From positions 30,001-62,000 of the forward strand of contig NZ_OMOH01000005.1 in the NCBI RefSeq assembly GCF_900289195.1: 32,000 bases of DNA, written 5' to 3'. Below the pieces are notes generated by a model that saw only the letters and a list, made by a program, of their open reading frames with translations, did no database searches and had not been told where the DNA came from. Each line of letters begins with the position of its first letter. Position 1 is the first letter of the stretch. Shown here in pieces: positions 1-13,111 of the stretch. Made by a program: the position numbers and the translations under genes. The stretch is from Propionibacterium ruminifibrarum. GTDB lineage: Bacteria; Actinomycetota; Actinomycetes; Propionibacteriales; Propionibacteriaceae.

Positions 1-1905
1 ATCACCGCCCAGCTCGGCCGCGCCGACGCCGTGATCACCATCCACGGCGGCACCAGCCGCGAGGACCGCAAGGCCGCCCAGGAGCAGTTCACCCACAGTC
101 CCGAGACCGTGGTGCTGCTGGCCACCGACGCCGCAGGCGAGGGCCTCAACCTGCAACGCGCCCACCTCATGGTGAACTACGACCTGCCGTGGAACCCCAA
201 CCGCATCGAACAACGCTTCGGACGCATCCACCGCATCGGCCAGCGCGAGGTCTGCCACCTGTGGAACCTGGTGGCCTCCGACACCCGCGAGGGCGACGTG
301 TTCAACCGCCTGCTCAGCAAGATCGACCAGATGGGCAAGGCCTACGACGGCAACCTGTTCAACGTGCTGGGGGAGCGCGACGCCTTCCAGGAGCGCTCAC
401 TGCGCGATCTGCTCATCGAGGCCATCCGCTACGGCGACCAGCCCGAGGTCAAGGCCAGGCTGGGCAAGATCATCGACGCCGGGGTCTCGGCCGGCCTGGG
501 CGAGATGATACGCGAACGGGCCCTGCACCCCCAGATGTTCAGCGCCCTCGACCTGGACGCGGTACGGGCCCGCATGGAGCTGGCCAGGGAACGACGCCTG
601 CAACCCGGCTACATCGCCGCCTTCTTCCTGTCCGCATTCGAGCGGCTCGGCGGCCGCATCCGACGGCGCGAGAGCGGCCGCTACCAGATCACCCGCGTCC
701 CCGAGCGCCTCGTGGGCATCGCGCGGCGCGCCAACCGGTGGGCGCCGGTCGCGGACTCCTACGAACGCGTCACCTTCGAACTGGAGCGGGTCAGGGTCGA
801 CGGGCGCCCCACCGCCTCCCTCATCGCCCCCGGCCATCCGCTGCTGGGCGCCGTGATCGAGGCCACCATCGCCGACCTCGGCGAGGCCCTGTCCGCCGGC
901 ACCGTCCTGGTGGACCGCCGCAGCACCCAGGCCGAGACGCCCATGCTCATGTACACCGTCGAGCAGCGCATCCACAACGCCACATCGAAGGCCGACACCG
1001 TCTCACATCACTTCGACTACCCGCTCCTGGCCCGCGACGGCACGGTCACCGTCTCACCGGCCCCGCCCTACCTCGACTACGAGTCCCCGCGCGCGGGCGA
1101 ACGTGAGGCCATCGCAGCGGTGATTCGCGGCGAGTGGGTGCGTCAGAGCCACGACAAGGCGGTGCGGGCACACGCCTACCGCGAGGGGCTCTTGCCCAGG
1201 ATGGAAGAGGTCAGGGCCCGGCTGGAGGCCGAGGCGGCCCGCACCCGGGTGCAGGTCAAGGACCGGCTGCTGGCCGAGGTCAACCACTGGGACGCCGAGT
1301 ACAACCGCCTCGACGCCCTGGAGCGCTCCGGGGTCATCGGCCGGCTGCGGGCCGAGACCGCGCTGGCGAGGGCCCGCCAGCTCGACGACCGGCTCGACCG
1401 GCGCCTTCACGAACTCGACCAGGTGACGAATCTCGTCGCCGTGCCCTCGGTGATCCGCGGCACGGCACTCATCGTCCCCTCCCGCATGCTCGCACCCAGC
1501 CCCGGCGTGTTCGCCCACGAGACCGAGCAGGTGGAACGCCGCGCCGTCGAGGCGGTGCTCGCCGCGGAACGCGCCCTGGGGCGTACGCCGGTGGAGATGC
1601 CCCGCAACAATCCCGGCTACGACATCCGCTCCATCGACCAGGCCGGACGCACCCACTACATCGAGGTGAAGGGCCGCATCCACGGCGCCGAGACCTTCAC
1701 GATCACCACCAACGAGGTCACCTTCGCCCAGACCCAGGGCGACCGCCACCGGCTGGCGCTGGTCGAGGTCTCACCCGACGGCCCCGGGCATGACCGGCTC
1801 CGCTACGTGACGCAGGCCTTCTCACACATCGAACCGTCCGCCACCACCCGCTCCTACAACGAGGAGTGGCGCGGCTACTGGACCAGGGGCGGCCCGCCCC
1901 GATGA
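1..1905 (+). CDS. SNF2-family helicase, C-terminal part (5' end lies outside the window), with a C-terminal DUF3883-type PD-(D/E)xK nuclease-like domain
   Basis: Frame 1 is open from base 1 (ITAQLGRADA precedes the tracked GTG at 31). Helicase motif V is LLATDAAGEGLNLQ and motif VI is QRFGRIHRIGQ. The C-terminal GYDIRS...HYIEVKGR...FTITTNEVTFAQ...RLALVEV matches the DUF3883 signature. Confidence 0.85.
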   Translation: MTAQLGRADAVITIHGGTSREDRKAAQEQFTHSPETVVLLATDAAGEGLNLQRAHLMVNYDLPWNPNRIEQRFGRIHRIGQREVCHLWNLVASDTREGDVFNRLLSKIDQMGKAYDGNLFNVLGERDAFQERSLRDLLIEAIRYGDQPEVKARLGKIIDAGVSAGLGEMIRERALHPQMFSALDLDAVRARMELARERRLQPGYIAAFFLSAFERLGGRIRRRESGRYQITRVPERLVGIARRANRWAPVADSYERVTFELERVRVDGRPTASLIAPGHPLLGAVIEATIADLGEALSAGTVLVDRRSTQAETPMLMYTVEQRIHNATSKADTVSHHFDYPLLARDGTVTVSPAPPYLDYESPRAGEREAIAAVIRGEWVRQSHDKAVRAHAYREGLLPRMEEVRARLEAEAARTRVQVKDRLLAEVNHWDAEYNRLDALERSGVIGRLRAETALARARQLDDRLDRRLHELDQVTNLVAVPSVIRGTALIVPSRMLAPSPGVFAHETEQVERRAVEAVLAAERALGRTPVEMPRNNPGYDIRSIDQAGRTHYIEVKGRIHGAETFTITTNEVTFAQTQGDRHRLALVEVSPDGPGHDRLRYVTQAFSHIEPSATTRSYNEEWRGYWTRGGPPR

Positions 1906-1948: not shown

Positions 1949-4717
1949 GTGACCAAGAAGAAACTCATCGAGACCTCCCTGCCGCTGGAGGCCATCAACG
2001 CCGCCTCCGCCCGCGAGAAGTCGATTCGTCACGGGCACCCGTCCACCCTGCACCTGTACTGGTCCCGCAAACCATTGGCCACCGCCCGTGCCGTGCTGTT
2101 CGCCCAACTCGTCGACGACCCCGCCTCCCGGCCCGAGGAATTCCCCACGACCGCGGAGCAGGATGCCGAGCGGGCGAGACTGCACGCGCTCATGGAGAAG
2201 CTGGTGGTCTGGGAGAACAGCTGGGACGAAGGTCTGCTGCGCCAGGCTCGTGACGAGATCCGCAAGAGCAACGACGGCCGGCTCCCGCCGGTGCTCGACC
2301 CGTTCGCCGGTGGCGGTTCCATCCCGCTGGAGGCGCAGCGGCTCGGCCTGGAGGCCCACGCCAGCGACCTCAACCCCCTCGCCGTGCTCATCAACAAGGC
2401 GCTCATCGAGATCCCGCCCAAGTTCGCAGGAATGGCCCCGGTCAACCCGGACGCCCGCGACCAGAGCCTCTACCAGCGCGCGGAGGGGCTGGCCGCGGAC
2501 GTGCGCTACTACGGGCAGTGGATGCGCGACGAGGCGGAGCGCCGCATCGGTCACCTCTACCCGAAGGTCACCGCCCCCGACGGAACCGAGCACACCGTCA
2601 TCGCTTGGAAATGGGCGCGCACCGTCAAGAGTCCCAACCCGGCCAACCCCATCGAGGTGCCCCTGGTGAACTCGTGGTGGCTCAGCAAGAAGAAGGGCAA
2701 AGAGGCTTGGGTGCGCGCCACAGTGCGGGGCGGACAGGTGCACTACGAGGTAGTGCACAGCGCCGATGGGCCACGCGGCGAGGACGAGTGGACTATCAAG
2801 CATGGGAAAGGTGCGAAAGCAGTTGGTGATGGAACTCCCTTCAGCTACGACTACATCCGAGAAGAGGGGCTCAATGGTCGAATAGGATCCCATCTCATCG
2901 GTATTGTGGCAGAAGGGCAGCGGGGGCGTTTGTATTTCTCGCCATCGCAGGATCATGTTGCTGCGGCGCAGGTGGCACGTCCTGATATCAGTGTAGATGG
3001 CCAGATCGCAACCAATCCCAGGTGGTTCTCGCCTCCGGCCTATGGGAAGAAATACTTCTCCGAACTTTTCACGAACCGCCAGCTCGTGGCCATGACGACC
3101 CTCAGTGACCTCGTCGCTGAGGCGCGGGAGCGAGTAGTGAATGATGCTCTGCCTAAGGGGTTGCCAACAGGAGACCGTCTTGAGGCTGGTGGCAATGGCG
3201 CCCAAGCCTACGCCGATGCGGTGGCTACGTACCTTGCGCTAGGGGTGAGTCGTACTGTCGACTACTGCAATGCCATGTGTAGCTGGCATTCTGGGCGAGA
3301 TACGATCCGTAACATTTTTTCAAGGCAAGCCATTCCTATGGTCTGGGATTACGCCGAGGTGAATCCTTTTTCGGGTTCTTCGGGTAATTTTCTTGGTCAA
3401 GTTGAATGGGTTGTCAAAGCTCTCGAGTGTGTTCCAGCATCTGCCTGTGGCACTGCTGCACAAATCAGTGCTGTGGAGCGTGACTACAGTGGCCTCGTTG
3501 TCTCGACGGATCCGCCCTACTACGACAACATCGGTTACTCTGATTTGTCGGATTTCTTCTACGTTTGGCTGCGCCGCTCACTCAGGGACATTCATCCGAC
3601 GGTTGTCAGCACGATGCTCACCCCCAAGGCCGACGAACTCGTCGCCAATCCGTACCGTCACGACGGCAAGGAAGGGGCGGAACGGTTCTTCATCGACGGC
3701 TTCAACTCCGTCTTCGCTCGCGTCCGCCAAGGCGACAACCAAGCGGTGCCTATGACGGTGTACTACGCCTACAAACAGCAGGACGCGGAGGCCGATGGTA
3801 CCTCGTCCACCGGCTGGCACACCCTTCTTGACGGGCTCATCAAGGCCGGCTGGGAGATCACCGCCACGTGGCCGATGCGTAGCGAACTGACAAATCGGAT
3901 GCTCTCTCAGGGCACCAATGCTCTGGCGTCCTCGATCGTTCTGGCCTGCCGCCCCCGCCCCGTCGATGCGGAGTCCACCACCCGCCGGGCGTTCGTGGCT
4001 CGCCTCAAATCTGAACTGCCGGGGGCACTGCGCACGCTCATGCAGGGCGCCATCGCTCCGGTGGATCTGGCGCAGGCCGCCATCGGCCCCGGCATCTCGG
4101 TGTTCTCCCGGTATGCGCGGGTGCGTGAGGCGGACGGCTCCGACATGAGCGTGAAGGACGCGTTGCTGCTGATCAACGCAACCCTCGACGAGGTGCTCGG
4201 TGAGCAGGAGTCCGACTTCGACCCCGACACCCGTTTCGCCGTCAGGTGGTACCGCAGCTACGGCTGGGCCACCGAGAGCTCGGGCATGGCCGACCAGCTC
4301 GCCCGCGCCTCGGACACCTCCATCGGGGCGCTGGAACGCGGCGGAATCTTCGAAGCCAAGGGCGGCAAGGCCCGGCTGCTGCCGCCGGCCGAGCTGCAGG
4401 ACGCCTGGAACCCCGCGTCCGACGAACGCCTGAGCGTCTGGGAGGCCACGGTGCGCCTGGCCGCGGTCATGGACGATCAGGGAGCCGACGCGGTGGCCCA
4501 ACTACTGGCCGAGGCGCGGGACCACGTGAACCTCGACGCCGTCAAGGAACTGGGCTTCCTGCTGTTCCACGAGGCCGAGAAGAAGAACCAGGCCAAGGAC
4601 GCGCTGCTGTTCAACGGCCTCGTCAGCGCCTGGGGCGACATAGCGGAGCAGGCCCGCCGCATCGACCCGAGCTCCCGATCGGCACAGGCGGCGTTCGACT
4701 TCAACGAGGAAGAGTAA
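1949..4717 (+). CDS. DUF1156-family DNA methyltransferase (amino-methyltransferase type with DPPY catalytic motif)
   Basis: 922-aa ORF with a GTG start 43 nt after the helicase stop. N-terminal LIETSLPLEAINAASAREKSIRHGHPSTLHLYWSRKPL is the DUF1156 signature. SAM-binding motif I is LDPFAGGGSIPLEA. Catalytic motif IV is STDPPYY (DPPY at nt 3509-3520). Confidence 0.9.
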   Translation: MTKKKLIETSLPLEAINAASAREKSIRHGHPSTLHLYWSRKPLATARAVLFAQLVDDPASRPEEFPTTAEQDAERARLHALMEKLVVWENSWDEGLLRQARDEIRKSNDGRLPPVLDPFAGGGSIPLEAQRLGLEAHASDLNPLAVLINKALIEIPPKFAGMAPVNPDARDQSLYQRAEGLAADVRYYGQWMRDEAERRIGHLYPKVTAPDGTEHTVIAWKWARTVKSPNPANPIEVPLVNSWWLSKKKGKEAWVRATVRGGQVHYEVVHSADGPRGEDEWTIKHGKGAKAVGDGTPFSYDYIREEGLNGRIGSHLIGIVAEGQRGRLYFSPSQDHVAAAQVARPDISVDGQIATNPRWFSPPAYGKKYFSELFTNRQLVAMTTLSDLVAEARERVVNDALPKGLPTGDRLEAGGNGAQAYADAVATYLALGVSRTVDYCNAMCSWHSGRDTIRNIFSRQAIPMVWDYAEVNPFSGSSGNFLGQVEWVVKALECVPASACGTAAQISAVERDYSGLVVSTDPPYYDNIGYSDLSDFFYVWLRRSLRDIHPTVVSTMLTPKADELVANPYRHDGKEGAERFFIDGFNSVFARVRQGDNQAVPMTVYYAYKQQDAEADGTSSTGWHTLLDGLIKAGWEITATWPMRSELTNRMLSQGTNALASSIVLACRPRPVDAESTTRRAFVARLKSELPGALRTLMQGAIAPVDLAQAAIGPGISVFSRYARVREADGSDMSVKDALLLINATLDEVLGEQESDFDPDTRFAVRWYRSYGWATESSGMADQLARASDTSIGALERGGIFEAKGGKARLLPPAELQDAWNPASDERLSVWEATVRLAAVMDDQGADAVAQLLAEARDHVNLDAVKELGFLLFHEAEKKNQAKDALLFNGLVSAWGDIAEQARRIDPSSRSAQAAFDFNEEE

Positions 4718-4720
4718 GCC

Positions 4721-5551
4721 ATGGCCACGAAGCAGTCCCAGCCCCCACGTGGCCAAAAGGATGGCCCCGGCGCGGCGACCGCGTCCGCGGCCTCGTCCGG
4801 GGCTTACGTGCCCAAGGCTACCACCCCGGGTGACGCTTGGACCAGTCCGGTGGTTCCGTCCGATGCCTCGGATGGATCGTCCTCGGCTCCAGTTCCGGTC
4901 GGCATGCTGTTCCGACTGTTGAGCACAGAACGTATGGCCACCTATGCTGCCGAGTGCGCAGAGGACATGGAGCAGGCTCTGCGCCTTTACGCGTGGAACA
5001 CCGCGGTCTCCGCAGCCCTATGGGGAAGCTTCAACATTCTTGAGGTCACGCTGCGGAACGCTGTCGATCGTCAGCTGGCTGAACTTGCAGGGCGCACGGA
5101 CTGGTGGCGCGGGGAGAACCTGCTGCGCGATCAGGAAAGCCGTATTGCTCAGGATGCGGTGAGGGCGGCGAAGCGAACACACTCCGACCTCGAGATCCAG
5201 CCCGGGCACACCGTGGCAGAACTGACTCTTGGCTTCTGGGTCGGACTGCTCGCCAACAGGTATCACCAGCGGCTGTGGGTGCCCGCTCTTCATCGAGCCT
5301 TCCCCTACTGGCACGAAACGCGTAGGGAGCTGCATCGCAGGCTCGAGTCGCTGCGCAAGCTTCGTAACCGAGTTGCCCACCACGAACCGATCTTTGCCCG
5401 AAAACTAGTGGTAGACCATGACCAGTTGCTCGAAATTCTCGAAGGAATCGCCCCAGAGGCGGCAGCATGGGTTCGGCAGAACTCTCGCGTCCCGGACGTG
5501 CTCAGCCGACGCGCCCAGATTATTGCAGGCGCTGACAGTACCACCTTCTAG
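4721..5551 (+). CDS. Abi_2 / AbiD-AbiF-like abortive-infection protein (HEPN fold)
   Basis: LRKLRNRVAHHEPIF (RNxxAH HEPN motif, nt 5363-5380) plus N-terminal LRLYAWNTAVSAALWGSFNILEVTLRNAV are typical of the Abi_2 family. ATG 4721 lies 3 nt after the methylase stop and has a GAGGA Shine-Dalgarno about 10 nt upstream. The recognisable domain only begins near the alternative ATG at 4904 (MLFRLLSTER), so the start is ambiguous. Confidence 0.7.
   Translation: MATKQSQPPRGQKDGPGAATASAASSGAYVPKATTPGDAWTSPVVPSDASDGSSSAPVPVGMLFRLLSTERMATYAAECAEDMEQALRLYAWNTAVSAALWGSFNILEVTLRNAVDRQLAELAGRTDWWRGENLLRDQESRIAQDAVRAAKRTHSDLEIQPGHTVAELTLGFWVGLLANRYHQRLWVPALHRAFPYWHETRRELHRRLESLRKLRNRVAHHEPIFARKLVVDHDQLLEILEGIAPEAAAWVRQNSRVPDVLSRRAQIIAGADSTTF
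4761..4820 (+). repeat. Junction repeat copy A (hairpin-forming, GC-rich)
   Basis: atGgccccggcgcggcgaccgcGTCCgcggcctcgtccggggctTacgtG... aligns without gaps to 6691-6750 at about 50 of 60 positions. The outer 7-bp stem is gccccgg/ccggggc, and an inner stem flanks the variable centre. Confidence 0.8.
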
Positions 5552-5581
5552 AGGACAACGATGGCGATGAACAACCGAGAT
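5542..5581 (+). repeat. Direct repeat copy 1 (Abi stop, RBS and codons 1-7 MAMNNRD)
   Basis: cacCttctagAGgacaacgatggcgatgaacaaccgagat matches 7452-7491 at 37 of 40 positions. Weaker similarity extends about 12 nt further upstream. Confidence 0.9.
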
Positions 5582-6676
5582 AAAGCGCGGCGTGATGGTG
5601 CAGCAAGCCGCCATTCTGCCCCAGGTCTGACGCCGTTCCCGGCCTTCGCGGAATCGGTCAGTGCTGGTGACGGTGAACTCGTGGAGCAGGTGTCGGCTCT
5701 GATCGACCAGGCTCAAGCGTTCGCTGCGGCGCAGGCGAACGCGACCTTGACCCTGCGGAACTGGTACATCGGGCGCTTGATTGACGTAGCCGTGCTGCGC
5801 GAGGGCCGCGCAGGGCACGATCAAGAACTTGTTGCGTCACTGGCGCAACAATTGACCTCAAGGTACGGGCGCGGCTATGACCGGACAAACCTGTACCGGA
5901 TGGTGCGATTCTCCCAACAGTTCACCGATCCAGAACGTGTTGCGTCGCTGGCGCAACATGTCAGTTGGACTCACTTCCGCGAGCTGCTCCCACTCGGCTC
6001 CGATGAGGCGCGCATCTTCTACGTGCAGGAGACTATCGATCGCCGACTCAGCGTCCGGGAGCTGCGCCACGCCATCTCCCGCAAGGCTTTCGAGCGCCGC
6101 GAGATCGCCGACTCACAGATTCCCGAAGGGTCAGGAACGCCACTGGACGCGTTCCGCGACCCGATGCTGCTCGACATGCTCGGTCTCGCGGACACGTTCC
6201 TGGAGCGCGACCTCGAAGCCGCCCTGCGTCATGACATGGAGGCGTTCCTGCTGGAAGCCGGCCGCGGGTGGGCGTTCGTTGAACGGCAGAAGCGCATGAC
6301 CTTCGACGGCGATGACTACTTCCTCGACCTGCTGTTCTACTCAAGGCCACTGCATCGGTTGATTGCGGTTGAGCTGAAGGTCGGAAAATTCAAGCCCAGT
6401 TATCAAGGGCAGATGAACTTCTATCTGAAGTGGCTCGACAGGTACGAACGGCAGGCTGACGAGAACCCGCCCATTGGCCTGATCCTGTGCACCGAGGCGA
6501 GCCGGGACCAGATCGAGTTGCTTGAGTTGCACAAGGACGGGATTGTCGTCGCCGAGTACTGGACGACGCTGCCGCCCAAGGCCGAGCTCCAGGCCCGGAT
6601 CGCCCAGATCTACCGGGAGGCCCAGGAGCGGATCGCCCGGCGGCAGCTCACGGCGCCGGAGGCCAGCGATGAGTAA
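5561..6676 (+). CDS. DUF1016 / YhcG-like PD-(D/E)xK nuclease domain protein
   Basis: N-terminal helical region ANATLTLRNWYIGRLI. C-terminal nuclease core YFLDLLFYSRPLHRLIAVELKVGKFKPSYQGQMNFYLKWLD (D...ExK). The first 7 codons (MAMNNRD) and the RBS are a copy of the DUF499 gene start. Confidence 0.85.
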   Translation: MAMNNRDKARRDGAASRHSAPGLTPFPAFAESVSAGDGELVEQVSALIDQAQAFAAAQANATLTLRNWYIGRLIDVAVLREGRAGHDQELVASLAQQLTSRYGRGYDRTNLYRMVRFSQQFTDPERVASLAQHVSWTHFRELLPLGSDEARIFYVQETIDRRLSVRELRHAISRKAFERREIADSQIPEGSGTPLDAFRDPMLLDMLGLADTFLERDLEAALRHDMEAFLLEAGRGWAFVERQKRMTFDGDDYFLDLLFYSRPLHRLIAVELKVGKFKPSYQGQMNFYLKWLDRYERQADENPPIGLILCTEASRDQIELLELHKDGIVVAEYWTTLPPKAELQARIAQIYREAQERIARRQLTAPEASDE

Positions 6677-6690
6677 CCCCACATACAACG

Positions 6691-6750
6691 ATTGCCCCGG
6701 CGCGGCGACCGCTGGAGCGGCCTCGTCCGGGGCTCACGTCGACAATGCTA
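6691..6750 (+). repeat. Junction repeat copy B
   Basis: atTgccccggcgcggcgaccgcTGGAgcggcctcgtccggggctCacgtC...; see copy A. It begins 15 nt after the DUF1016 stop. Confidence 0.8.
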
Positions 6751-6767
6751 TAGGGGCCAGCAAACCG
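6749..6767 (+). repeat. Left inverted repeat bracketing the mazEF module
   Basis: The reverse complement of tataggggccagcaaaccg matches cggtttgctggccctata at 7395-7412, with a single 1-nt indel (gggg versus ccc). Confidence 0.8.
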
Positions 6768-6821
6768 CGTCGGGCCGGGTGGGGTGGGGGATCGGTAAAC
6801 CGACAGGGATACACTCAAGGT

Positions 6822-7070
6822 ATGACTTCGTTGACCACTATCAAGGTGTCCACGGGCACCAGGGACCGGCTGCGCGAGGCCTCCCGCGCCGCGGGCATCT
6901 CTCAGGCTGCGCTCATCGAGCAGATGCTCGACGCGCGCGAGGAGGCCGCCTTCTGGGAGGCCCTCGATGCCGCGCCCCCGTACACCGACGAGGAGCGGGA
7001 GGAGTTCCGTCGCGGCGAGGCGGCCTCGTTGGCGGATGCGGCGCGCCTGTTGGAGGATGAGGAGCGGTGA
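6822..7070 (+). CDS. Ribbon-helix-helix type antitoxin, partner of the MazF/PemK toxin
   Basis: 82-aa acidic protein. N-terminal TTIKVSTGTRDRLREASRAAGISQAALIEQML looks like an RHH beta-strand plus two helices. Its stop overlaps the toxin start (GTGA at 7067-7070). An alternative upstream ATG at 6669 has GGAGG 6 nt upstream and would add a 51-aa N-terminal extension, so the start is uncertain. Confidence 0.7.
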   Translation: MTSLTTIKVSTGTRDRLREASRAAGISQAALIEQMLDAREEAAFWEALDAAPPYTDEEREEFRRGEAASLADAARLLEDEER

Positions 7071-7381
7071 CGCCTCTGCCCCATCCGGGCGACGTGGCGT
7101 GGCTTGACATGTCCCCGACCATCGGGCGGGAGCAGCGGGGCCACCGCCCCTATCTCGTGCTCTCCGATGCCCGGCTCCACCGGGCGCGACAGCTGGTGAT
7201 CGGGGTGCCGCTCACGACGCGCAACAGTCCGATCCCCACGCGCGTCGCCGTCGGCGAGGGGTCGTACGCCATCGCGGAACAACCCACGACGTTCTCGATG
7301 GAGAGGATCACCAGGGTGGAGGCCCGCGGCCTCGACACCGCCGAGGTGCGGCGCGTCATCGTTCGGCTGCTCGGGGGATGA
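7067..7381 (+). CDS. mazF: MazF/PemK-family type II toxin (endoribonuclease)
   Basis: 104 aa. PGDVAWLDMSPTIGREQRGHRPYLVLS ... VIGVPLTTR is the typical PemK/MazF N-terminal SH3-like signature. There is a 4-nt overlap with the upstream antitoxin. Confidence 0.85.
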   Translation: MTPLPHPGDVAWLDMSPTIGREQRGHRPYLVLSDARLHRARQLVIGVPLTTRNSPIPTRVAVGEGSYAIAEQPTTFSMERITRVEARGLDTAEVRRVIVRLLGG

Positions 7382-7394
7382 ACCTCCTTGAGGT

Positions 7395-7412
7395 CGGTTT
7401 GCTGGCCCTATA
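7395..7412 (+). repeat. Right inverted repeat bracketing the mazEF module
   Basis: cggtttgctggccctata, 14 nt after the mazF stop; see the left repeat. Confidence 0.8.
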
Positions 7413-7451
7413 CAAGCATCACCCGGGACGTCGTCACCGGGACTGAAGCAT

Positions 7452-7491
7452 CACGTTCTAGGAGACAACGATGGCGATGAACAACCGAGAT
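7452..7491 (+). repeat. Direct repeat copy 2 (RBS and codons 1-7 of the DUF499 ATPase gene)
   Basis: cacGttctagGAgacaacgatggcgatgaacaaccgagat; see copy 1. Confidence 0.9.
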
Positions 7492-10400
7492 CGAGTGGGC
7501 AGGGCCTTCGACCTGCTCTCCGAGGGTCTCCACGACCTGGTGGACGAGGTGATGACCAAGACCTACAACTCATCGCAGTGGCCTGACGCGTGGGCCGAGG
7601 AGGATGCCCGGCGTCGGGGTGGCCCCGTGAGGACCATGACCAAGCAGGACGTCCAAGTGCAGCTTCGCGCCATCACCGAACGCGGCTACGAGTTCAAGGA
7701 CGTGCTGTCCCGGGCTCAGCAGAGCTTCGCCTCCGAACTGCGCGAGACCCGCAACAAGTGGGCGCACAACGAGCCGTTCAGCTCCGACGACACCGTCCGC
7801 GCCCTCGACACCATCGAACGGCTCCTCGAAGCAGCGGGATCCACCGACTCGGCCGCCGACGTGCGCAAACTGCGCACCGACCTGCAACGCACCGTCTACG
7901 AGGAACAGACCCGCAAGCAGGCCAAGAAGGCCACCACGGTGTCCCTCGAACCTGGGGCCGGGCTGAAACCCTGGCGCGAGGTGATAAGGCCCCACGACGA
8001 CGTGGCCAGGGGCGAGTTCACCGCCTCCGAGTTCGCCGCCGACCTGCACTTGGTGCACACCGGACAGGCCACCAGCCCGGAGTACGGCGACCCGGTGGAG
8101 TTCTTCTCCCGCACCTACCTCACCGAGGGCCTGCGCGATCTGCTGTCCCGGGCCCTGCGCCGCCTGGATGGCGACGGCAACGCCAGCCCGGTGGTGAACC
8201 TTCAGACCAACTTCGGCGGCGGCAAGACCCACTCCATGCTCGCCCTCTACCACCTGTTCTCCGGAACCCCGGCGCAGCGCCTCCCGCAGGACGTGCAGGA
8301 ACTCGTCGCCGAGGTCGGCAACCCCGACCTGGCGGCGCTCAACGTCAGGCGGGTCGCCCTGGTCGGCACATACCTGAAGGCGGGATCGCCGCAGGTCAAA
8401 CCGGACGGCACCCAGGTGCACACCCTGTGGGGCGAGCTGGCATGGCAGCTCGGCGGGCGCGAGGCCTATGACATCGTCGCCGACGACGACCGGGCGGGCA
8501 CCAGCCCCGGCGAGGCGCTGCGAAGGCTGATCCAGGCCTACGCCCCGGCGCTCATCCTCATCGACGAGTGGGTGGCCTACGCCCGCCAGTTGGTCACCGA
8601 CCAGGAACTCCCCGCCGGCTCCTTCGACACCCAGTTCACCTTCGCCCAGTCCCTGACCGAGGTGGTGCGGTCGGTCCCGGGGGCCATGCTCGTGGTCTCC
8701 ATCCCCGCCTCCGACAGCGGCGACCGGGGAAGCGACATCGAGATCGGCGGGGCCAACGGGCAGCTCGCCCTCGACCGCCTCCAGAACGTCATCCGCAGGG
8801 TGGCCGACCAGTGGAGGCCCTCCAGCCGGGACGAGTCCTTCGAGATCGTCCGCCGACGCCTGTTCCAGGCCCCGGACGCCGCAGGACTCACCTACATCTC
8901 GGCAGTGGCCCGCACCTTCGCCACCATGTACCGGAACAACTCGGCGCTGTTCCCCCGGGACGCGGCGACACCGAACGACGACTACGAGAAACGCATCCGC
9001 GCCTCGTACCCCCTGCACCCCGAACTGCTGGACCGGCTGTACGAGGACTGGTCCGCGTTGGAACGGTTCCAGCGCACCCGCGGGGTGCTGAAACTGGTGT
9101 CGTCCATCGTCCATGAGCTGTGGGCCTCGAACGACACGTCCCCGCTGATCCTGCCCGGCAATGTGCCGCTGGACGCCACGACGGTGAACACCGATCTGAC
9201 CCAGTACCTGGAGGACCAGTGGAAGCCGATCATCGACTCCGACATCGACGGCGCCAGCTCGACGGCCCAGCGGATCGACCTGGACCGTCCCAGTCTGGGG
9301 CAGCGGTTCGTGACACAGCGCATCGCCCGCACCATCTTCATGGGGGCGGCGCCCCGCAGCCGGAGTGCCCGCAAGGGGCTGGACAAGCAGTACGTGTGGC
9401 TCGGCACCGCCGTGCCCGGCGACGTGCTGGGCAACTTTGGTAGCGCCATCGAGCAGCTGGCCCAGCGCTCCACGTACTTCTACGAGGAGCAGGGCCACTA
9501 CTGGTTCGACACCCAACCGTCCGTCACCAAGACCGCCAGCGACTACGCCGAGAGGCTGCGCGAGGACGTCGAGACGGTGTGGAACGAGATCACCAGGCGG
9601 CTCCGCGGCGAGGAACGCAGCCGCGCCGAGTTCGACCGGGTGCACGTGGCCCCCGAATCCAGCGCCGACATCCCCGACCTGGAGGACACGCGGCTGGTGA
9701 TCGCGCACCCCAGGCACAGCGTCCGCAGGCAGGATGGACCCGACTCGGAGGCCTTCCAGTGGGTGCACGAGGCGGTCGAGACGAAGGGGGCCGGGCAGCG
9801 CATCCACCGCAACACGCTGATCTTCCTGCTGGCCGATTCGGGCCAGCTGGAGAGCCTGGAGTCCGCGACGCGCACCTACCTGGGCTGGAAGCAGGTGCAG
9901 GCGACCAGTGAGACCTTGAACCTCACGGCCCAGCAGCACAAACAGGCCGACGAGTGGGTGAGTCGTCTGGACCAGACCGTCACCGACCGGATCCGCGACA
10001 CCTTCGTGTGGGCGCTGTACCCCGAGCAATTCGACCCGACCAAACCCTTCGACGTGGTGTCGAGCAGGATCCTCGACTCCGGCACACGCTCCCTCGCCGA
10101 ACGGGTGAGCACGAAACTCGTACGCGAGGAACAGCTGATCACCCAGCTGGGCGCGGCCAGCCTGGGGGACGCGCTGCACCGGGAACTGGGGGCGCTGTGG
10201 CAGGACAGGGGCGAGATCACGGCCGAGGAACTGTGGGGCTACTTCACCCGGTACACCTACATGCCGAGGCTGGCCAGCCGGGACGTGCTCGACAACGCCA
10301 TCAAGCAGTCACTGACCGCCGTGCTTGTCGAGAACGAACGCTTCGCGATCGCCACCGGCAAGGACGAGGAAACGGGCCGCTACCGCGGCCTGCTCATCCC

Positions 10401-10872
10401 GCCCGACCCCAACGCCACGCTTCAGGTCACCGACGGCACGCTGCTCGTCGCAATCGAGCGCGCCCAGCAGCAGGTCGATGCGGAACAGGCCGATGCCGCC
10501 CAACCCGCCGGAACCAGTGTGGCAACGGATGCCGGTCAGACGGCTGCGGGTGGTTCAGCCGACTACGTGTGGGCCAGCGGCATACCCGCGGCAACGGGGA
10601 GCGAACAGTCCGGTGCTGAATCGGAACTGGAGGCCGTGCTCGGTCGTTTCTTCGGGTCGGTCAGGATCAACTCCGACCGCTACAACCGCGACATCGGCAA
10701 CATCACCCGCGAGGTCATCGACCGGCTGGCCGGCTCCGGTGCCCAGCTGGAAATCACCATCGACATTCAGGCCATCAAGAAGGAAGGATTCACCGAGTCC
10801 GAGGTGCGTACCATCAGCGAGAATGCGCGGGTGCTGAAGTTTGACCCCGATTCGGGCTTCGAGCAGGACTGA
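7471..10872 (+). CDS. DUF499-family P-loop ATPase with N-terminal Swt1-like HEPN domain
   Basis: 1133 aa. HEPN motif ETRNKWAHNEPF (nt 7750-7767). Walker A is NFGGGKTHSML and Walker B is ALILIDEWVAY. C-terminal FFGSVRINSDRYNRDIGNITREVIDRL...ENARVLKF is typical of DUF499-type ATPases. Confidence 0.85.
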   Translation: MAMNNRDRVGRAFDLLSEGLHDLVDEVMTKTYNSSQWPDAWAEEDARRRGGPVRTMTKQDVQVQLRAITERGYEFKDVLSRAQQSFASELRETRNKWAHNEPFSSDDTVRALDTIERLLEAAGSTDSAADVRKLRTDLQRTVYEEQTRKQAKKATTVSLEPGAGLKPWREVIRPHDDVARGEFTASEFAADLHLVHTGQATSPEYGDPVEFFSRTYLTEGLRDLLSRALRRLDGDGNASPVVNLQTNFGGGKTHSMLALYHLFSGTPAQRLPQDVQELVAEVGNPDLAALNVRRVALVGTYLKAGSPQVKPDGTQVHTLWGELAWQLGGREAYDIVADDDRAGTSPGEALRRLIQAYAPALILIDEWVAYARQLVTDQELPAGSFDTQFTFAQSLTEVVRSVPGAMLVVSIPASDSGDRGSDIEIGGANGQLALDRLQNVIRRVADQWRPSSRDESFEIVRRRLFQAPDAAGLTYISAVARTFATMYRNNSALFPRDAATPNDDYEKRIRASYPLHPELLDRLYEDWSALERFQRTRGVLKLVSSIVHELWASNDTSPLILPGNVPLDATTVNTDLTQYLEDQWKPIIDSDIDGASSTAQRIDLDRPSLGQRFVTQRIARTIFMGAAPRSRSARKGLDKQYVWLGTAVPGDVLGNFGSAIEQLAQRSTYFYEEQGHYWFDTQPSVTKTASDYAERLREDVETVWNEITRRLRGEERSRAEFDRVHVAPESSADIPDLEDTRLVIAHPRHSVRRQDGPDSEAFQWVHEAVETKGAGQRIHRNTLIFLLADSGQLESLESATRTYLGWKQVQATSETLNLTAQQHKQADEWVSRLDQTVTDRIRDTFVWALYPEQFDPTKPFDVVSSRILDSGTRSLAERVSTKLVREEQLITQLGAASLGDALHRELGALWQDRGEITAEELWGYFTRYTYMPRLASRDVLDNAIKQSLTAVLVENERFAIATGKDEETGRYRGLLIPPDPNATLQVTDGTLLVAIERAQQQVDAEQADAAQPAGTSVATDAGQTAAGGSADYVWASGIPAATGSEQSGAESELEAVLGRFFGSVRINSDRYNRDIGNITREVIDRLAGSGAQLEITIDIQAIKKEGFTESEVRTISENARVLKFDPDSGFEQD

Positions 10873-11854: not shown

Positions 11855-13111
11855 ATGTTTTCTGCTATCGTTCCGAGTATGAAAGGTCATCCACGCATGC
11901 CTCCTTACGGATCTGCACGGGATCTCCCATCAGTCAAGGAGATAGAACAGCAAATAGCAGCATTCAAGAAGGTGATGTTCTTTTCGCGTGATAAACGGAG
12001 GCGGCTAGAGCAGTTAGAAAACAAGCATCGACATATAATAGAAACCGTTGACACTTTCTATGACTTGCTCGGGGCGCGCAACTGGGTTTTCACTGATGAT
12101 CTCAACTTAGATGAGATTCAAAAAGTCGTGGCTGGCTCTGATTCGCAGGTGGCGGAAAAGCGTCTTATTGAGTATTACCAGAAAACTGGACGAATCTCAT
12201 CTCTACTTCGTCAGCTCAGCCGATTTGACGAGATGCAGAAGCGTCTTCCCCTGCTACAGAAGGCGCTGGCTGATTATGAAGCGGGTCGCTACTACAGCAC
12301 CGTTCTTGTCATACTTTCAATGATGGATGGTTCCGTCAATGACCAGGACACGGCACAACGCAGAGGACTGCATGCACGTTCGCCCGAAGATATGATGGCC
12401 TGGGATAGCGTCGTCGGGCATCATCTTGGGCTGGGGCATGCTCACAAATCCTTCGTTAAAGCGTATTTCAAGACAGATGAAACCGAAATTACTGAGCTGG
12501 CTCGTAATGGAATCATGCACGGCACTTTGGTGAACTATGACAACGTAGTAGTCGCAACAAAAGCTTGGAATCGTCTTTTTGCAGTTGCTGACTGGGCTGA
12601 TGCGCGGAAGCGACAAAAACGACCTGTTGAACCAGCGCCCTCGTATAGAGAATTAATGACACGTTGGTGTAAAATCCAGTCTAACAAGACTAAGATTGAA
12701 CAGTGGCAGCCGTATGAGTATGATCCAAACTTACCGCATGAAGATCCCGCTGAAGTTGCCATGGTGTGCGCAGACTTTCTTGAGCGATGGAGTAAGCGCC
12801 AATGGGCGCCGATGGGTGAGTACTTTATAAAACTCGTGAACCCCCAGCGGCCCCCCGGCCAACTTGCGCGAGAAGCCAGGGATCTTTACGAGCAGTTCAA
12901 TCTTGACGAATGGAAGATCCTTAGAGTGCGACACGAGGCCGCTGCCGTCGCGTATACTGATGTGCAGCTCATAGTGAATTCCAGGATTTACCTGGCTGAT
13001 CTACGTTGGATTCATGTTGACGGTAATGAGAAAACTGCCATGGAATGGGAACCTGGACGTTGGGTGCTGTCACCGTATGGGCCAAATAAATTCCTCAGTA
13101 TCGACGATTAA
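11855..13111 (+). CDS. Hypothetical protein (418 aa) with a HEPN-like Rx4H motif; orphan gene of the AT-rich island
   Basis: This is the only long ORF in the island, and its low-GC codon usage is consistent with the island. The pattern LQKALADYEAGRYYSTVLVILSMMDG ... ELARNGIMHG (R217-x4-H222, nt 12503-12520) resembles a HEPN four-helix bundle. The N-terminus is predicted coiled-coil-like, and the C-terminal ~150 aa is an unrecognised globular region. The start is uncertain (ATGs at 11855, 11879, 11897). Confidence 0.6.
   Translation: MFSAIVPSMKGHPRMPPYGSARDLPSVKEIEQQIAAFKKVMFFSRDKRRRLEQLENKHRHIIETVDTFYDLLGARNWVFTDDLNLDEIQKVVAGSDSQVAEKRLIEYYQKTGRISSLLRQLSRFDEMQKRLPLLQKALADYEAGRYYSTVLVILSMMDGSVNDQDTAQRRGLHARSPEDMMAWDSVVGHHLGLGHAHKSFVKAYFKTDETEITELARNGIMHGTLVNYDNVVVATKAWNRLFAVADWADARKRQKRPVEPAPSYRELMTRWCKIQSNKTKIEQWQPYEYDPNLPHEDPAEVAMVCADFLERWSKRQWAPMGEYFIKLVNPQRPPGQLAREARDLYEQFNLDEWKILRVRHEAAAVAYTDVQLIVNSRIYLADLRWIHVDGNEKTAMEWEPGRWVLSPYGPNKFLSIDD

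Follow-up and report, generated by a model that had tools for sequence, protein, structure and literature searches.

Hma, also termed the Type-1 bacteriophage exclusion (BREX)-related system with a HEPN-fused DUF499 ATPase, is described in PMC12839542, according to which PD-(D/E)xK, HEPN and other nucleases occur near, and sometimes inside, such loci, and anti-phage activity has been reported in the literature that it cites. Two further systems are relevant here: the AbiF-family toxins, which are neutralised by hairpin RNAs encoded just upstream (PMC12373285), and the displacement arrays of Rhs, contact-dependent inhibition (CDI) and type VI secretion system (T6SS) effector-immunity loci, which are ascribed to homology-facilitated illegitimate recombination (PMC5361080). 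In this work, we analyzed an Hma operon contained in a 32,000-nucleotide (nt) stretch of the Propionibacterium ruminifibrarum genome (contig NZ_OMOH01000005.1, positions 30,001 to 62,000; hereafter the window), in which a gene for a DUF1016 nuclease and hmaC, the gene for the DUF499 ATPase, share a translation start carried by two copies of a direct repeat, Y. Comparison with related loci makes it probable that each Y copy marks the right-hand boundary of an AbiF-like module, that one of these two modules is intact while the other has decayed, and that recombination stacked them inside the Hma operon, with DUF1016 receiving the start of hmaC.

The window shares with the known system a helicase, a DUF1156 methyltransferase and a HEPN-DUF499 ATPase encoded in one operon, and these co-oriented genes were found in the same order in 50+ loci. 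On gene content, we assign the locus to the Hma (BREX-related) phage-defence operons; its anti-phage role is taken from the literature. It differs from the known system by three accessory units, an AbiF-like gene (Abi, 4721-5551), DUF1016 (5561-6676) and mazEF (6822-7381), which are stacked between hmaB and hmaC, the gene order being hmaA, hmaB, Abi, DUF1016, mazEF and HEPN-hmaC. Keyword searches of PMC12839542 returned no junction scars, Abi pseudogene or leader hairpin. The accessory region is laid out as follows:

4721-5551, plus strand: intact AbiF/Abi_2-like HEPN gene (Pfam Abi_2, 26.9 bits against a cut-off of 25.6), ending in TTF and a stop.
4757-4820, plus strand: first copy of repeat X, inside the Abi leader; core at 4764-4803.
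5537-5581, plus strand: first copy of Y, with the last Abi codons (TTF), the TAG at 5549-5551 overlapping the Shine-Dalgarno (SD) sequence AGAGGA, and the ATG at 5561; its 3' part, up to 5581, consists of 7 codons of hmaC origin, now at the head of DUF1016.
5561-6676, plus strand: DUF1016 (YhcG-type PD-(D/E)xK nuclease) with a chimeric start; Pfam DUF1016_N and YhcG_C, PADLOC PDC-S02.
5576-5581, plus strand: recombination joint CGAGAT, common to hmaC codons 6-7 and native DUF1016 codons 5-6.
6677-6750, plus strand: X', the 5' remnant of a second, decayed Abi, a leader without start codon; hairpin core at 6694-6733.
6751-7410, plus strand: mazEF insertion of 660 nt, with imperfect inverted repeats at 6751-6767 and 7395-7410 and an empty site in locus L025.
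6822-7070, plus strand: mazE (RHH_10, weak, below cut-off).
7067-7381, plus strand: mazF (PemK_toxin, 57 bits).
7413-7461, plus strand: what is left of the decayed Abi at its 3' end, with homology to the final ~57 nt of the Abi of locus L064 and its like, ending in TTCTAG (7456-7461).
7447-7491, plus strand: second copy of Y (Y'), with TTCTAG, the SD AGGAGA, the ATG at 7471 and MAMNNRD; the native junction between the decayed Abi and hmaC.
7471-10872, plus strand: hmaC, DUF499 AAA+ ATPase with an N-terminal Swt1-like HEPN domain (Pfam HEPN_Swt1 at residues 11-121, and DUF499; PADLOC HmaC, E 4.7e-271).

The layout can be written [X-Abi-Y]-DUF1016-[X'-remnant-Y']-hmaC. A repeat finder aligned the two Y copies over 45 nt with 89% identity, and their exact core measures 28 nt (5554-5581 and 7464-7491). 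The pair had been noticed in a first-pass annotation of the window, and its description was accurate: 5542-5581 and 7452-7491 differ at 3 of 40 positions on reading, each copy contains TTCTAG, a ribosome-binding site (RBS; SDs AGAGGA and AGGAGA), the ATG and six further codons, and the open reading frames (ORFs) 5561-6676 and 7471-10872 begin with a common MAMNNRD and then diverge. A 36-mer search allowing up to 3 mismatches located only these 2 Y sites in the 32 kb (shuffle expectation 0.00), and Y was accordingly rejected as a dispersed repeat within the window. Since the same arrangement is repeated in nine further contigs, including L063, L149-L154 and L157 (L151 and L154 stop short of the Abi end), it is not an assembly artefact.

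In order to place Y in a wider context, we scanned for relatives of hmaC, which yielded 59 genomic loci; with about 90 metagenomic ones, ~150 loci were fetched. The simplest type has hmaB directly followed by hmaC (26 loci, with a gap of 2-14 nt in 23 of them), and 23 loci are of the hmaB-DUF1016-hmaC type. Other arrangements are hmaB-Abi-hmaC (L028), Abi-DUF1016-hmaC without mazEF (L025) and DUF1016-mazEF-hmaC without Abi (L022, from Propionibacterium australiense, the nearest genome to the window). Between locus types, hmaB and hmaC are homologous (65-85%), and the first gene after hmaB begins 3-14 nt past the hmaB stop in both 3-gene and 4-gene types.

In the Abi-type loci L064, L067/68, L077/78 and L028, Y is the normal Abi/hmaC junction, with the native sequence ..ACC ACG TTC TAG GAGACAAC..ATG GCG ATG AAC AAC CGA GAT CGA.., and the same junction recurs in the rearranged loci L069, L070 and L065. 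We attribute the TTCTAG of Y to Abi because nearly all of the Abi homologues inspected (n=75) end in F, most of them in [TS][TS]F. Since the normal junction of Abi-type loci has this very sequence, Y is, by homology, the right-hand end of the Abi module, made up of the final Abi codons, a stop that overlaps the SD and the start of hmaC. The Abi-type loci, L028 included, also provide the empty-site form, with the Abi stop directly followed by hmaC, for which the first-pass annotation had proposed a search. Its suggestion that the ATPase copy of the heptapeptide is ancestral likewise stood, as hmaC begins with an MA[MILV]NN-like sequence in every locus type (49 related hmaC genes, including those of the insert-free 3-gene loci). 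The weaker similarity reported upstream of Y is real, but the partner described as noncoding is the 3' end of an Abi pseudogene, which matches the 3' end of the intact Abi.

We then considered what else Y might be. At 45 nt, and spanning coding sequence of two genes, it is too long for a transposase target-site duplication, as had been pointed out from the start; a transposon insertion with such a duplication was also rejected on the grounds that no transposase is present and that no inverted repeats lie at 5581 or 7447. Given that DUF1016 and hmaC use the same RBS and first seven codons, Y could conceivably be a functional regulatory element, an operator or a device of translational control, of which two copies were selected to co-regulate both genes. 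We regard this as highly improbable. Synonymous-site conservation in the 5' codons of hmaC is 0.73 compared to 0.67 in the rest of the gene, which is no excess, so Y is not a constrained nucleic-acid element in its own right. In addition, Y is single copy in most loci, its upstream half is wholly missing from 3-gene loci, and the region gave no significant fold or Rfam match. Promoter and terminator consensus scans found nothing at X or Y.

The start of DUF1016 was examined across the same loci. In all Abi-less loci that carry the gene (n=23, many genera), the native start is MPGSRDQ (M[PS]G[SK]RDQ..) or MARNPDE.. and lies 3 nt past the hmaB stop. The chimeric MAMNNRD start was found only in the window lineage and in L025, both with Abi directly upstream; among the 120 best DUF1016 homologues, it heads a single one, a 99%-identical copy. 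At the swap, the first 4 native codons (ATG CCG GGC AGT) gave way to 5 (ATG GCG ATG AAC AAC), and the Abi 3' end and SD came with them. Past CGAGAT, the chimeric gene resumes sequence homologous to the native one (CAAGCG.. against CAAGCC..). Native DUF1016 codons 5-6 read CGAGATC or, in L006, L040 and L049, CGAGATCGAG, which is also the sequence of hmaC codons 6-9; in other loci, the stretch shared by the two gene starts thus extends over 7-10 nt, CGAGATC(GAG), and the microhomology measures 6-10 nt overall. The extension of ~37 residues that had been taken for a product of the repeat is native, as it is also present in Abi-less loci of this DUF1016 clade. Similarly, the idea that an incoming DUF1016 took over resident start signals survived in part: the gene did capture the hmaC RBS and start by recombination, but it would not be the incoming unit, being resident with its native start in 23 loci. 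Elsewhere in the gene, the N-terminal domain contains an internal 33-nt direct repeat (5818-5850 and 5926-5958, 91% identity), which encodes ..LVASLAQQ.. twice.

A different history would be an old founding capture, whereby a single fusion to the start of hmaC gave rise to all Hma-embedded DUF1016 genes, MPGSRDQ and MARNPDE diverged from the captured start, and the window and L025 kept it or regained it by conversion against Y'. The native starts, M-[AP]-[RG]-[NS]-[RP]-D, are indeed close to M-A-M-N-(N)-R-D, CGAGATC(GAG) stands at nearly the same offset from the ATG in both genes, and the 3-14 nt spacing after hmaB common to the 3-gene and 4-gene types fits as well. We nevertheless consider this history unlikely, because the nucleotide similarity between native DUF1016 and hmaC starts is not significant compared to random windows (median p about 0.08, a fraction obtained with sequences that are not independent), the upstream half of Y, with its Abi codons and SD, is absent from native DUF1016 starts, and the chimeric start occurs only where Abi is present.

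The region between DUF1016 and hmaC supplied further evidence. Since 6677-6750 matches the Abi leader and 7413-7461 matches an Abi 3' end, the X'..Y' segment is, on these alignments, a decayed Abi gene from which the body has been deleted. The 3' remnant aligns to the end of L064-type Abi genes (GTCGTCACCGGGAC..CACGTTCTAG, encoding VVTGTQSTTF and a stop), and a 1-nt deletion within it creates an in-frame TGA. X'-remnant-Y' stands alone, without mazEF, in L025, and other 4-gene loci contain shorter, more decayed remnants between DUF1016 and hmaC; in L001, L003 and L065 their resemblance to X' reaches significance, and elsewhere it fades. The remnant ends in VVTGTQSTTF and the intact Abi of the window in ..IIAGADSTTF, so the two modules are of different Abi lineages. 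Another pair in the region, the inverted repeat I10 (4825-4839 and 7413-7427), was discarded as no more than would be expected by chance, there being many pairs of 15 nt.

Two X and two Y copies in the same order and at similar spacing (1930 and 1910 nt) would be expected from a local tandem duplication of [X-Abi-Y] around DUF1016, followed by decay of the downstream copy. The 3' remnant belongs to an Abi lineage other than that of the intact gene, which rules out a recent local duplication; moreover, X and X' are only 83% identical, and the equal spacing is coincidental, resulting from the later 660-nt mazEF insertion (Y and Y' are 1246 nt apart in L025, which lacks it). We therefore judge a tandem duplication very unlikely.

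The mazEF insertion has its own history. The pair qualifies as a Type II MazEF system, with a small ribbon-helix-helix (RHH) antitoxin and a PemK/MazF toxin whose genes overlap by 4 nt (7067-7070). The insert is bounded by terminal inverted repeats of 16-17 nt, TAGGGGCCAGCAAACCG and CGGTTTGCTGGCCCTA, a feature that the first-pass annotation had missed, with TA on both sides (6749-6750 and 7411-7412), and it sits in the Abi remnant, 7 nt from the deletion joint of the latter. It is present in the window and in L022, and L025 has the precise empty site (..gcaatgcTA/cggcatcacc.., the slash marking the insertion point). Because L025 has DUF1016 without mazEF and L022 has mazEF without Abi, mazEF had been wrongly counted as part of one DUF1016 cassette, and by this comparison its insertion is clearly an event separate from the duplication of Y. 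We found no other copies of the terminal repeats. A recurrent mobile element was rejected, since all the 99%-identical copies lie in this same context and a 67%-identical homologue elsewhere lacks the inverted repeats.

We next compared the window to L022. The two are 96-100% identical by sliding identity, except in the centre of hmaB and from 4717 to ~6160. The latter tract comprises Abi and the first ~600 nt of DUF1016, which are of a lineage other than that of L022, whereas the last ~500 nt of DUF1016 are 98-100% identical to it. The window, L022 and L025 are mosaics of one another, and in the window lineage the exchanged tract would then have brought in Abi with the chimeric start, its far end being set by homologous recombination within DUF1016. 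The other divergent segment, the centre of hmaB (~2600-3600), has a GC content of 52-60% and 40-70% identity to L022, the remaining gene being 93-98% identical; it looks like a swapped target-recognition region.

These results bear on the model put forward in the first-pass annotation, in which the Y copies delimit a 1.9-kb segment, DUF1016-junction-mazEF, that was inserted in an Abi-hmaC locus and can be precisely excised by Y-Y' recombination. The existence of Abi-type loci with the Abi stop directly followed by hmaC and the ancestral hmaC start both agree with it, and, the founding recombinant being symmetric, DUF1016 as the incomer is formally compatible with it. However, DUF1016 is resident with its own start in 23 Abi-less loci, the histories of mazEF and DUF1016 are separate (L025 and L022), and the tract in which the window departs from its nearest relative comprises Abi and the 5' half of DUF1016, not the DUF1016 body plus mazEF. 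The model also leaves the X/X' repeat and the Abi 3' remnant unexplained. As regards excision, a Y-Y' deletion is mechanistically possible, because a 28-nt exact repeat could support a rare event, and an ordinary Abi-type locus would result; none of the ten contigs spanning both Y copies (eight window-lineage contigs, L065 and L025) showed such a product, and no alternative contexts of the exact hmaC, DUF1016 or MazF proteins were found. In view of these results, we hold the cassette model to be decidedly unlikely.

The anatomy of the locus, its homologies and its distribution being as described, we infer the following order of events and recombination pathway for two stacked Abi modules. The native module would run from the hmaB stop through a leader with the X hairpin and the Abi body to TTC-TAG over the SD and the hmaC start, ATG GCG ATG AAC AAC CGA GAT. 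The downstream module, X'..Y' (6677-7491), would be the resident one, lying between DUF1016 and hmaC; its body would have been deleted, leaving the 5' leader and ~50 nt of frameshifted 3' end, and mazEF would have been inserted later in this remnant. The upstream module, X..Y (4721-5581), with an intact Abi of the other lineage, would have been derived from an Abi-type Hma locus, bringing with it the initial 21 nt of that locus's hmaC, and would have been joined to resident DUF1016 codon 5/6 at the CGAGAT(C) microhomology. In the process, DUF1016 would have been stripped of its 4 initial codons and uncoupled from hmaB; its translation would now depend on an RBS and ATG of the hmaC type, with the SD overlapping the Abi stop, and hmaC would keep its own copy. 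The likeliest route would be homology-facilitated illegitimate recombination, with a homology anchor in hmaB on the left and an illegitimate joint on the right; the same product would result if two co-resident Hma variants crossed over unequally. Consistent with such a route, hmaB and hmaC, which are homologous between locus types, are possible anchors, and microhomology was found at the illegitimate joints, namely CGAGAT(C), 6-10 nt, in the window and GGCGTTCGAC in L069.

Three other loci join Abi-type and DUF1016-type Hma loci, each differently:

L069, 5787-5850: Abi-Y-hmaC codons 1-14, then the last hmaB codons and a native-start DUF1016.
L065, 6876-7000: DUF1016, a short X', Y and hmaC codons 1-17, then the last ~24 hmaB codons and X-Abi-Y-hmaC.
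L071/72, L071 4900-4975: truncated DUF1016 joined to the hmaB tail, then X-Abi-Y.

The three joints are independent. The joint of L069 lies within GGCGTTCGAC, where it forms a chimeric ORF of 20 residues, MAMNNRDRVGKAFDLDEDED followed by a stop. As GGCGTTCGAC is common to the hmaC 5' end (KAFDL) and the hmaB 3' end (QAFDF), it probably acts as a natural recombination handle. In L065, Y is duplicated over 66 nt, and in L070 an Hma remnant adjoins a second Hma locus.

Several points weigh against the stacking of two modules in the order proposed. In none of the loci does an intact Abi adjoin DUF1016 on one side and hmaC on the other, and the proposed ancestor of X'..Y' is thus deduced from remnants alone. 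The founding product is symmetric and does not reveal which partner was the incomer, Abi+Y in a DUF1016-type locus or DUF1016+X'Y' in an Abi-type locus; the former direction is favoured by parsimony and the L022 comparison only. Some native DUF1016 starts (MARNRDE, MPRNRDQ) faintly resemble MAMNNRD, which leaves room for an older capture. Finally, all loci are heavily mosaic, which blurs the order of events, and a recombination pathway is not observable from sequence.

A close parallel to this arrangement is provided by the displacement arrays (PMC5361080), in which, as is proposed here, a conserved flank serves as the anchor, a newcomer is attached by an illegitimate joint, its predecessor is displaced downstream to become an orphan remnant, and the completed mosaic is then propagated by ordinary homologous recombination. 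The window differs from them in three respects: the locus is a restriction-modification (RM)-like defence operon, the incoming module donates the first codons of its former downstream neighbour to a different gene, and the joints fall in short sequences common to gene ends (CGAGATC; GGCGTTCGAC). Integron cassettes with attC sites are also alike in that promoterless genes follow one another in a single orientation, the module borders carrying an imperfect hairpin. However, attC is conserved in structure only, whereas X is conserved in sequence and lies at the 5' end inside a coding leader, and the joints in Hma loci vary from locus to locus. A cassette array of this kind was rejected, as no integrase domain was found in the nineteen window ORFs scanned against Pfam and X is sequence-invariant and 5' of the genes. 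The locus thus lays out base by base how an RM-like defence operon may gain extra effectors: modules from variant alleles would be stacked at short sequences common to gene ends, leaving orphan remnants and chimeric starts. For annotation, this means that the MAMNNRD of DUF1016 and the 'intergenic' region upstream of hmaC would be scars and not native features.

The persistence of the module was also seen in L025 (1-7900), which has no hmaA and an hmaB cut to its last ~100 codons upstream of Abi, so the Abi/DUF1016/hmaC part persists in a decayed Hma locus.

We then turned to the Abi protein and to repeat X. The protein has the Abi_2 domain and a HEPN Rx4-6H motif, RNRVAHH (Rx4H), which is invariant in the alignment of Abi homologues. 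A sequence search of the PDB returned nothing, and fold comparison alone gave a match: the AlphaFold model (pLDDT 80.6) had 8vz6_A, PbAbiF bound to non-coding RNA (ncRNA), as its only significant PDB match (probability 1.00, TMq 0.55, 255 columns, E 3.9e-3). On this model, Abi has the AbiF fold. The N-terminal leader, approximately residues 1-54 (4721-4882), is predicted to be disordered (pLDDT <50), and the sequence ..GQENCPGAATASAASSGAY.. is found in this leader in about thirty Abi homologues.

At the DNA level, the Abi N-terminal leader is X, a direct repeat of 64 nt (4757-4820 and 6687-6750, 83% identity) that was not part of the first-pass annotation. Its core is a 40-nt hairpin of 16 bp, GCCCCGGCGCGGCGACCGC-nnnn-GCGGCCTCGTCCGGGGC, at 4764-4803 and 6694-6733. 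The core was found in L025, L028, L060, L064-L067, L069-L073, L075, L077 and L096; there are two sites in the window, and among the ~150 fetched loci X occurs only in Abi or DUF1016 leaders. It is absent from phages, and plasmids gave two partial matches only (32-33 nt, 91-94%), inside unrelated genes. Across 15 distinct leaders, the major-allele frequency of the 40-nt core is 0.96 compared to 0.60-0.66 in the flanks, and its 15 codons use one synonymous codon 97% of the time versus 66% in the Abi body (Mann-Whitney p = 1e-8). Pairing across the 16-bp hairpin is retained in 98% of cells, with ten invariant pairs and a freely varying loop. One compensatory pair change was detected, in L028; covariation is minimal because the sequence hardly varies. 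The hairpin energies are unexceptional compared to shuffles (z -0.6 to -1.7).

The known AbiF systems with a cognate ncRNA (RCd22 with abiF motifs, PMC12373285; 8vz6) resemble the window in several ways, since the Abi model matches PbAbiF, the Rx4H motif is present, and a 40-nt hairpin conserved at the nucleotide level lies directly 5' of the Abi domain on the same strand. However, the abiF RNA motif (RF03085) itself was not found upstream of the gene, where the different hairpin X takes its position, and a cmscan of 4500-7700 (E <= 10) gave no credible Rfam match, abiF RF03085 included. Unlike the described motif, X consists of a lone hairpin, and the leader around it is open, apparently translated and begins 1-8 nt past the stop of the upstream gene (3 nt in the window); the abiF motif is set in a 5' untranslated region with its own promoter and terminator, and the X leader is not. 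Considering the conservation of the hairpin, the fold match to ncRNA-bound PbAbiF and the upstream hairpin RNAs of the AbiF family, X may be the cognate RNA of this Abi clade, which we offer as a lead and not as a result.

More broadly, one can tentatively envisage X as a putative structured RNA that would serve an actinobacterial AbiF clade as its cognate type III-like antitoxin or regulator, and X, Abi and the stop-overlapping SD together as a self-contained plug-in module for RM-like operons (Hma, type I RM), which would move via short sequences common to gene ends, sometimes with the start codons of a neighbour. Accessory effectors would in this way be shuffled like cassettes but without a recombinase, and Y and X would be the footprints of the process. 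The X hairpin is a concrete candidate for a new AbiF-associated RNA in Actinomycetota and the part most worth an experiment.

Two further contexts of X were recorded. In L066 (6900-7860), a leader-X-Abi module lies inside a type I RM operon, hsdR-hsdS-DUF4357-Abi-hsdM, where the TTCTAG stop of Abi overlaps the hsdM SD and the hsdM start (ATGGCGA..AACAA) appears faintly like that of hmaC. In L060-L062 (e.g., L060 5900-6130), DUF1016 is fused directly to the leader with a partly mutated X, downstream of the remains of an hmaB 3' end, so that the leader heads the nuclease and not an Abi; these loci adjoin a type I RM system.

The operon is completed upstream by two genes, the start of the window falling inside the first:

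31-1905, plus strand: 3' part of hmaA (SNF2 helicase, NOV_C); Pfam Helicase_C and NOV_C, PADLOC HmaA, E 4.5e-173, profile positions 543-1159.
1949-4717, plus strand: hmaB, DUF1156 N6-adenine methyltransferase; Pfam DUF1156, PADLOC HmaB, E 0.

No match pointed to a plasmid origin of the locus, and the remainder of the window is ordinary chromosome (major facilitator superfamily (MFS) transporter, hydrolases, glycosidases). Downstream of hmaC, the segment 10873-13370 has a low GC content (43-51%) and contains an orphan ORF of 418 residues (11855-13111) without Pfam, PHROG or PADLOC match; at the equivalent place, L022 carries a different segment of 4.5 kb.

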